From Rhizophagus irregularis (lineage: Eukaryota): a stretch of DNA of 64,000 nucleotides. Under the pieces are notes generated by a model, which did not search any database, was not told where the DNA came from, and was given only the letters and a program-made list of their open reading frames with translations. Where the stretch lies: contig NC_089436.1 in NCBI RefSeq assembly GCF_026210795.1, positions 620,001 through 684,000 on the forward strand. The letters are read 5' to 3'. The number at the start of each line of letters is the position of its first letter. Within the stretch, counting starts at the first letter, position 1. This document shows positions 1-868 of the stretch, piece after piece. A program made the translations under genes and the position numbers.

Positions 1-705
1 TTACAACTAGTTGCTATAAATATTAAAGAAGAGGTAAGTCATTTCCTTACTGGATGAGTTTTTTTTTAAAAAAAAAAATCTGATAAGTATTAGCTATAGA
101 GTTACTTGGAGAAAGAGCAGAGAATCGGAAATTTTATACGAAACGTTCCTACTACCTTACAGGTATGGCCTAAAAATTATGCCGTATTTTAAGAGAATAT
201 CACATTAAATTTTTGTATGATATTCCAGAGAAATGAAAAAAAAGGAAGAGAAAAAAAAGGAACCTTGGATTCTAAGTTGGAGACCGAATTGTTTGAGAAT
301 GGAAATAGACGGAGTGATGATCCCAATTGCCACTCCATGGGATGTTCTTACCCTCCTTTATACAATCAACATTGGCGAACCTCCAATGCAGACTTTATTC
401 GATTATCAGATAGAATGGCTGTATCGACATTTAAAACAGTTAGCGAAGTGGATAATGATTTTAGAGCCAATGCACATGAAGATACAACTATGGCCGACAG
501 TAATAAATGTGGCGTGGAAATCAAACGACAAGGAAATCATGAAGGTCTCGTTCAGAGCGTCGCTAGTAGAAAACAGGAGTTCCAGAAAACAAATAGTAAA
601 GTTTCGACAGGAAGTCGATTTAGAGAATCACCATCTCTTTCCTCGGGACAATCATGGGAATTTGGTAAAGAATCAAAAGCCCTGGCTGTTCGGAAATTGT
701 GTTGA
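1..705 (+). CDS. Overlapping spliced reading frame (exons 1-33, 100-162, 229-705), hydrophilic, 5'-partial, ending at TGA 703-705 in frame with ORF 715-1167
   Basis: Introns gtaagt..tag (34-99) and gtatgg..cag (163-228) join in phase 0 to give LQLVAINIKEE-SYLEKEQRIGNFIRNVPTTLQ-RNEKK... with no stop until 703. Confidence 0.4.
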
Positions 706-868
706 AGTGAATACATGGTTCCATCTAGCGTCCCAGATACCCGAGCTACCAATCAGAACTTTTGCAATAATAACAGAAATACAAAAAACGAAACCATGTT
801 GCAGGAATTGCAAAACGGTGATGGCATGCAGAACACCAATGATCTTGCATCACTCATTAGATTATTGA
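233..868 (+). CDS. Putative zinc-dependent nucleic-acid deaminase-fold protein (YwqJ/toxin-deaminase-like), possibly extended upstream via exon 100-162
   Basis: 211-aa ORF with a CxE motif (WLFGNCVE) followed by a helix, a hydrophobic strand (IRTFAII) and a CxxC motif (KPCCRNC), in deaminase-fold order and spacing. The frame stays open across the GT-AG intron 163-228 into exon 100-162 (VTWRKSRESEILYETFLLPY). Confidence 0.55.
   Translation: MKKKEEKKKEPWILSWRPNCLRMEIDGVMIPIATPWDVLTLLYTINIGEPPMQTLFDYQIEWLYRHLKQLAKWIMILEPMHMKIQLWPTVINVAWKSNDKEIMKVSFRASLVENRSSRKQIVKFRQEVDLENHHLFPRDNHGNLVKNQKPWLFGNCVEVNTWFHLASQIPELPIRTFAIITEIQKTKPCCRNCKTVMACRTPMILHHSLDY

Follow-up and report, generated by a model that had tools for sequence, protein, structure and literature searches.

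At the 5' end of a 64,000-nt stretch of Rhizophagus irregularis DNA (NCBI RefSeq assembly GCF_026210795.1, contig NC_089436.1, positions 620,001 to 684,000 of the forward strand; hereafter the window), we found a copy of a spliced, multicopy gene family in which two proteins are read from the same nucleotides in different frames. Frame 2 (229–868) encodes a predicted zinc-dependent deaminase, as suggested by motifs, profile relatives and an Atlas lead. Frame 1 encodes a disordered N-terminal arm that is overprinted on the deaminase ORF (229–834; from alignment of relatives and AlphaFold), followed by a folded SUKH/US22-like domain, the predicted antidote (835–1167; from pLDDT and fold matches). 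We favor, with a probability of roughly 60%, the reading that the frame 2 deaminase would be a poison and the frame 1 SUKH-like protein its antidote, both encoded by one overprinted gene.

All features of the gene lie on the forward strand. The 3' end of a putative upstream exon (1–33), whose start codon lies upstream of the window, runs to a GTAAGT donor at 34; a similar IN(T/I)KE(E/K/A) stretch opens the gene models P0003, P0012, P0027 and P0047. Putative intron 1 (34–93) is followed by exon 2 (94–162), which near 113 lacks 11 nt that two related metagenome contigs (L001 and L002) have, and by a 66-nt GT..AG intron 2 (163–228) that is common to both frames. A preliminary description of this DNA had proposed two frames open across this shared intron, and translation confirmed it: frame 1 is open after splicing of 1–33, 100–162 and 229 onward, until a TGA at 703–705, and frame 2 is open from about 101, through the intron at 163–228, to a TGA at 866–868. 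Exactly the 66 nt of intron 2 are skipped at one contig joint, in run X17 (guessed to be an RNA run), and the intron is missing from both L001 and L002. RNA coverage leaves out positions 1–83, hence intron 1 and exon 1–33 are without RNA support. The acceptor at AG 98–99 used in the earlier proposal is derived and born by mutation; alignment with L001 and L002 places the ancestral family acceptor at AG 92–93. Downstream of the two ORFs, 1168–1390 aligns to the 3' ends of L001 and L002 and corresponds to the family 3' UTR and what is left of a basic, lysine-rich tail. We also noted that gene models P0043 and P0002 place the 3' splice site of intron 2 at alternative positions close to its end (window 221–230), which would switch one ATG between frames; these sites are predictor-derived, without RNA support here.

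The window is AT-rich (GC 0.17–0.37 per kb) and contains Sel1-repeat, kinase and Tc1-like sequences; a second copy of the gene family was not found in it. A Sel1-repeat gene (4540–5620, minus strand) is fragmented, contains stops and an internal duplication of 324 nt, and probably represents a further decayed copy from an expanded family. A 58-nt imperfect inverted repeat (3435–3634) flanks 10-nt tandem repeats and adjoins transposon-like remnants, and a Tc1/mariner-type transposase ORF with HTH_Tnp_Tc3_2 and DDE_3 is open for 345 codons (37291–38325, minus strand). Lastly, a 1,146-codon ORF without a Pfam match (42609–46046, minus strand) has antisense to it a 400-codon open frame rich in Val, Ser and Thr (43144–44343, plus strand), which is possibly a low-complexity effect.

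Evidence for selection on both frames came from the three full DNA copies compared: the window, L001 and L002. The latter are two loci out of 50 pattern matches, found via motifs of the SUKH domain and not via frame 2. The overlap spans ~200 codons, and both frames are open in the spliced paralogs L001 and L002 (~77% identical in DNA). Frame 2 has no stop in 212 (window), 204 (L001) and 237 (L002) codons. Synonymous recoding with window codon usage gave a mean of 6.5 frame 2 stops in the window (P(0) = 1e-4, 20,000 runs) and means of 6.5–8.0 over the three loci (P(0) ≤ 1e-4). Codon-order shuffles gave a mean of 8.0 in the window, none of 20,000 being fully open, and means of 6.8–8.1 over the three loci (P(0) ≤ 5e-5). 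Even under the most conservative null, recoding with the region's own codons, the means were 3.1 stops in the window (P = 0.021) and 3.1–3.9 over the three loci (P 0.008–0.021). The claim that a second open frame is unexpected by chance thus held under every null (P ≤ 0.021). The +1 frame of 11 ordinary ORFs in the window has 294 stops in 3,912 codons, with a longest open run of 118, and frame 2 downstream of the overlap has 7, 9 and 6 stops in 99, 152 and 144 codons (window, L001 and L002, respectively).

The substitutions that separate the three copies also bear out the proposed selection on both frames. When the observed substitutions were placed at random, frame 2 had 0 new stops versus 5.0–7.2 expected (p ≤ 0.004 in all six ordered pairs), and frame 1 had 0–1 versus 4.3–6.3 expected (p 0.006–0.015), the single new stop being the TGA of the window. 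No such depletion was found in frame 3. In amino-acid identity, the gain over the same null was modest (frame 2, p 0.005–0.23; frame 1, p 0.09–0.27). Differences were spread evenly across the three codon positions (0.19–0.27 each), as expected where no position is free. Stops are depleted in both frames across diverged homologs, which places the family in the class of dual-coding genes; on this comparative evidence, dual coding is real and a trait of the family.

The annotated frame 1 proteins were also inspected for traces of frame 2. In a set of 21 rows, which leaves out P0003, P0010, P0022 and P0026 (mosaic or deleted), Met followed by a residue that forces a TGA in the +1 frame occurs in 3 of 75 cases versus 19.7 expected, and a frame 2 stop is forced in 2 rows. 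The dipeptides of frame 1 are compatible with the three frame 2 cysteines in 22/22, 21/21 and 21/21 rows (3 rows dropped), the rows being mutually related, such that neither these dipeptide counts nor the Met counts are independent. The invariant leucines of the otherwise polar arm coincide exactly with frame 2 Cys codons, and a majority of the conserved Met/Val-x pairs of frame 1 fall on frame 2 Trp codons. From this placement, frame 2 is the older, structured frame and the arm its overprint.

In frame 2 of the window, G-N-C-V-E is encoded at 692–706 and C-R-N-C at 800–811; a candidate internal ATG lies at 299, and S-F-R is found at 548–556, where most relatives have FG. A 10-row frame 2 profile retrieved 70 proteins at E ≤ 1e-3 among 1.84 billion, and relatives reach down to 22–30% identity. 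The named relatives are Glomeraceae (10 looked up); no relatives were found in viral contigs or in prokaryote genomes, and in tblastn against plasmids, frame 2 had only two matches, both non-significant, and the C-terminal domain of frame 1 had none. Judged by these relatives, frame 2 is a genuine, diverged protein family. Among 22 rows hand-picked as mostly non-mosaic, the C and E of CxE are invariant (22/22), CxxC is complete in 18, at the position of helix 3, and 16, the window among them, have the Gly of GxCxE. The CVE variant of the window recurs in P0046 and P0066, and frame 2 proteins terminate 3–30 aa past CxxC.

The best PDB match of the frame 2 profile was a cytidine deaminase, aligned motif to motif (E = 0.11, not significant), and cytidine deaminases made up 4 of the 10 PDB matches listed. 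Like these enzymes (CDA; PDB 2d30, 1jtk), frame 2 has an NC[AV]E helix, a strand and a PCxxC helix; unlike them, it has long N-terminal helices and an insert before CxE, and strands 4–5 are missing. An NCBIfam cytidine deaminase match was not significant (E = 0.18), no Pfam deaminase family reached threshold in frame 2, and PF14431 gave no match at E ≤ 1 to 28 family members. The Atlas placed frame 2 with Ascomycota clusters without names (0.95) and yielded a YwqJ lead (0.83), that family being found on 11% of the cluster's members. The structure model of frame 2 was poor (pLDDT 44), with an order of helices and strands compatible with a deaminase fold; a fold search with this low-confidence model returned nothing meaningful. 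Zinc-dependent deaminases are characterized by [HCD]xE in helix 2 and CxxC in helix 3, and frame 2 carries both motifs. Separately, we noted distant (22–30% identity), apparently full-length deaminase-frame proteins (P0073/P0104/P0105, P0078 and P0049), which are candidate intact or stand-alone enzymes and a possible outgroup to date the overlap. Ascomycota look-alike clusters without names were seen for both domains (Atlas 0.93–0.95; window 868–1164, L002:57–767), hinting that the deaminase/SUKH-like pair possibly extends beyond Glomeromycotina.

Frame 1 (229–1164) corresponds to a multicopy family protein comprising a disordered arm of ~230 aa and a folded C-terminal domain. Relatives of 360–400 aa align over 229–1164, straight across the TGA at 703, and many of them have one upstream ATG in common. 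By this alignment, the family has one long frame 1 ORF, which has no natural end at 703, the TGA found there being a private nonsense mutation; what had been described as separate ORFs at 229–702 and 706–1167 is one family ORF cut by a nonsense mutation. Among 223 candidates of at least 269 aa, 28 are related to the C-terminal ORF, those with names coming from Rhizophagus, Glomus and Funneliformis (Glomeraceae). An AlphaFold model of the L002 protein (28 rows) had a pLDDT below 50 over residues 1–232 and ~90 in the C-terminal domain, which comprises a helix, a 4-strand meander (275–309), a helix and further short strands. The SUKH superfamily is characterized by helices and a split sheet made up of a hairpin and a 4-strand meander. 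In Foldseek, the top match of this domain was the SMI1/KNR4 protein 3d5p, with Knr4, Syd and YobK also listed, all PDB matches having E of at least 0.4; in VIA, 3d5p had a Z of 4.9 (rmsd 3.2, 76 aligned) and an RhsPI immunity protein 4.5, with a stefin tied at 5.0. Betaherpesvirus proteins, presumably US22 members, dominated the matches in a viral library (best E = 4.9e-3), and the Atlas returned US22 (0.90) and SMI1/KNR4 (0.85) at low recognition value. None of the SUKH-type matches (Smi1/Knr4, Syd, YobK, US22) reached E ≤ 1e-3, Pfam scans found no family at threshold for frame 1 or frame 2, and a PDB sequence search with the frame 1 profile gave no match. The fold matches are weak but repeated, none being significant alone, and suggest that the C-terminal domain is likely SUKH-like. 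Together with the low pLDDT of the arm, they agree with the view in the preliminary description of a hydrophilic, overprinted arm in frame with a SUKH-like domain.

A toxin-immunity pairing of deaminase and SUKH domains in bacteria is described in PMC3239186 and PMC3113570, the former giving the polymorphic-toxin pairs YwqJ/SUKH-3, XOO_2897/SUKH-4 and MafB19/SUKH. Like these pairs, the fungal family has a CxE and CxxC deaminase-like domain that is truncated soon after CxxC and lies directly 5' of a SUKH-like domain. Unlike them, it is eukaryotic, spliced and multicopy, no secretion domain was seen in it, and the toxin ORF is wholly overprinted by the N-terminal arm of its partner instead of being a neighboring gene. 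Of the features that Table 1 of PMC3239186 gives for the YwqJ clade, the family has Gx[CH]xE in helix 2 and the truncation past helix 3 or strand 4; the insert His is at or adjacent to its column in only 5 of 22 rows, and the label deaminase-like, without the clade, is therefore used here. In the window copy and in L001 and L002 alike, the SUKH-like and deaminase-like ORFs overlap, and mosaic gene models that combine a deaminase piece with the SUKH-like domain account for 11 of 76 database proteins, distant subfamilies included. Adjacency to a nucleic-acid-targeting toxin domain, by which SUKH immunity proteins are recognized, is found here, the putative toxin domain being the predicted deaminase.

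The window copy itself is degenerate and probably a pseudogene, given its lesions, which include a stop in the antidote frame. At 96–98 it has ATA in place of the ATG at which the SUKH-like protein of relatives starts, and the A at 98 also creates a TAG (97–99) in the upstream-exon frame and the new in-frame acceptor. The 11-nt deletion near 113 shifts the upstream-exon frame into frame 1, and the near-identical gene model P0002 has the same shifted reading of exon 2. At 703, the contigs of relatives in three runs have C where the window has T; in frame 2, Arg takes the place of the FG glycine. A 19-nt deletion past 1164 leads to an early TAA (1165–1167) and loss of the basic tail, and P0002–P0005 end at this same site. 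Assembly error as the origin of these lesions was ruled out: X7/X9 contigs (X7 and X9 are possibly the source of the DNA) match the window over 444–1045, and X12 contigs over 84–653 and 633–1137, with 0 differences, hence the changes are genomic. In four RNA or RNA-guessed runs, an exact window copy was not found, only relatives with small word shares (0.11–0.21). The frame from ATG 299 is open and includes CVE and CxxC, so residual predicted deaminase activity is possible. The poison-and-antidote idea of the preliminary description has gained a candidate poison, the CxE/CxxC deaminase-like frame 2, but the window copy is most likely decayed and no working driver.

Decay extends to other members of the family. 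None of the three full DNA copies is fully intact, and all uncouple the upstream start from frame 2, by three different small indels (–11, –2 and +1 versus annotated paralogs) that each bring the upstream-exon reading into line with frame 1. At 292–293, just 5' of ATG 299, RNA-run contigs of close relatives (X17, X18) lack 2 nt, which again joins an upstream frame 2 reading to frame 1; P0047 and this deletion have the +1 shift seen in the three DNA copies. The idea that only safe frameshifts occur is not put forward, one paralog type having a 10-nt deletion of the other phase and then a frame 2 deletion. Of the annotated rows, which are biased toward an open frame 1, only 12 of 22 could encode the catalytic Glu and 10 of 21 the FG glycine, with at least five independent changes at the Glu site on the tree. 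At the CpG Arg codons of the SUKH core, Arg is retained in 21/21, 20/21 and 19/21 rows, and at the Glu-forming CpG codon in only 11/21. CpG decay has removed the catalytic Glu from roughly half of the annotated paralogs, which keep the SUKH-like core. Targeted selection against this Glu was considered and rejected, since its codon decays approximately like other CpG codons in the overlap; by the same token, the poison would be unprotected in many copies, which counts against the poison-antidote reading.

Under the poison-antidote reading, intact copies would splice the upstream exon into the deaminase frame, with the internal ATG at 299 as a second possible deaminase start. Transcripts beginning within intron 1, or retaining it, would present an ATG just past the acceptor and be read in the antidote frame. 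L001 and L002 both begin inside intron 1 yet have intron 2 spliced; the isoform model is based on these two contig 5' ends, and contigs cannot reveal transcript starts. The SUKH-like domain would bind and neutralize the deaminase, otherwise a DNA or RNA mutator, and the overlap would tie the antidote to the DNA of the poison, such that both are inherited and duplicated as one unit. Copies would then decay toward antidote-only forms, through CpG changes that abolish the catalytic Glu and through small indels that put the upstream start in frame with the antidote; the window copy would have decayed further, its antidote frame also having a stop. A predicted complex of the deaminase and the SUKH-like domain scored 0.09 (mark 0.34) with alignments unused, and weighs neither way.

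PMC6526906 describes wtf drivers as producing poison and antidote via alternative 5' ends and as including antidote-only copies and pseudogenes. The family here resembles wtf of Schizosaccharomyces in that one locus would give two products from alternative 5' ends, and in being a large family with antidote-only copies and pseudogenes. The wtf poison, however, starts at an in-frame ATG and is an overlapping protein in the same frame, whereas here the two proteins are unrelated and in different frames. The order is also apparently reversed, as the exon 1 form would be the poison here. The Wtf Pfam family matched neither frame.

A real overlap may also serve a different purpose: the deaminase could be a controlled host enzyme, either an editor or one that mutates viruses, transposons or foreign nuclei, with the SUKH-like protein as its regulator or adaptor. 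This reading fits all the sequence evidence as well as poison and antidote do, and PMC3113570 and PMC3239186 describe SUKH proteins of eukaryotes as adaptors and propose a defense or non-self role for fungal deaminases. Nevertheless, we regard it as rather unlikely; the repeated loss of the catalytic Glu with retention of the SUKH core fits addiction-type decay better than an enzyme that the host needs.

Two adjacent genes without a functional overprint would be an improbable explanation, in which a short SUKH-like ORF is translated from an internal ATG (e.g. 796) and the arm is an untranslated by-product added by gene finders. In its favor, the arm is predicted to be disordered and does not exceed the null in amino-acid identity, frame 2 accounts for its invariant residues, and the window copy has in-frame ATGs 3' of the TGA. 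It does not, however, account for the many proteins of 360–400 aa with a common upstream ATG, or for the depletion of frame 1 stops in L001 and L002, which had not been selected for openness (0 versus 4.5 expected, p 0.006–0.012).

Ribosomal or transcriptional slippage would yield both products, or a fusion, from one start. The preliminary description had pointed to two A8 runs, at 236–243 and 251–258, and L001 and L002 each have a small short-repeat indel relative to annotated paralogs that could in principle be RNA-level. But A8 runs are absent from L001 and L002, the A8 region is variable among near paralogs (a 6-nt insertion at 245), and the frame shift of the window is an 11-nt genomic deletion. 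The A8 runs are thus unsupported as slippage sites, and we consider this explanation very improbable.

That a single real frame with a compositional side effect produced the overlap by chance is scarcely credible: frame 2 stays open in 0.8–2% of recodings that use the region's own codons, but stop depletion in three loci, Cys-codon compatibility and 70 diverged frame 2 relatives with catalytic-type motifs largely refute it.

Overprinted dual-coding genes are known from viral overlaps and from GNAS (XLαs/ALEX) and CDKN2A (INK4a/ARF). The family described here shares with them a long +1 overlap, a disordered overprinted product and a globular older frame; in contrast to them, it joins a predicted enzyme toxin to a predicted inhibitor in an expanding fungal family. 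Its components are of known kinds; the arrangement, a toxin overprinted inside its antidote in a family of spliced fungal genes, is apparently new. Literature searches turned up no account of the family or of its overlap; the fungal deaminases in the supplements of PMC3239186 may include relatives.

Nuclear genes seldom contain long, conserved dual-coding regions, and in this case the overlap hides a whole enzyme family from annotation, databases holding mostly frame 1 or frame-jumping mosaics. A bacterial-type deaminase/SUKH module would have been rebuilt as a single overprinted eukaryotic gene, and the family is a potential source of deaminases. Tentatively, and with some doubt, arbuscular mycorrhizal (AM) fungi might harbor a family of selfish poison-antidote elements, with a deaminase toxin gene locked inside the SUKH antidote coding sequence, that act between nuclei sharing a cytoplasm, when hyphae fuse or during cryptic meiosis, in a genome littered with antidote-only suppressor copies. 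If the gene is a toxin-antidote unit, it would provide a testable molecular handle on competition or non-self recognition among the nuclei of AM fungi.
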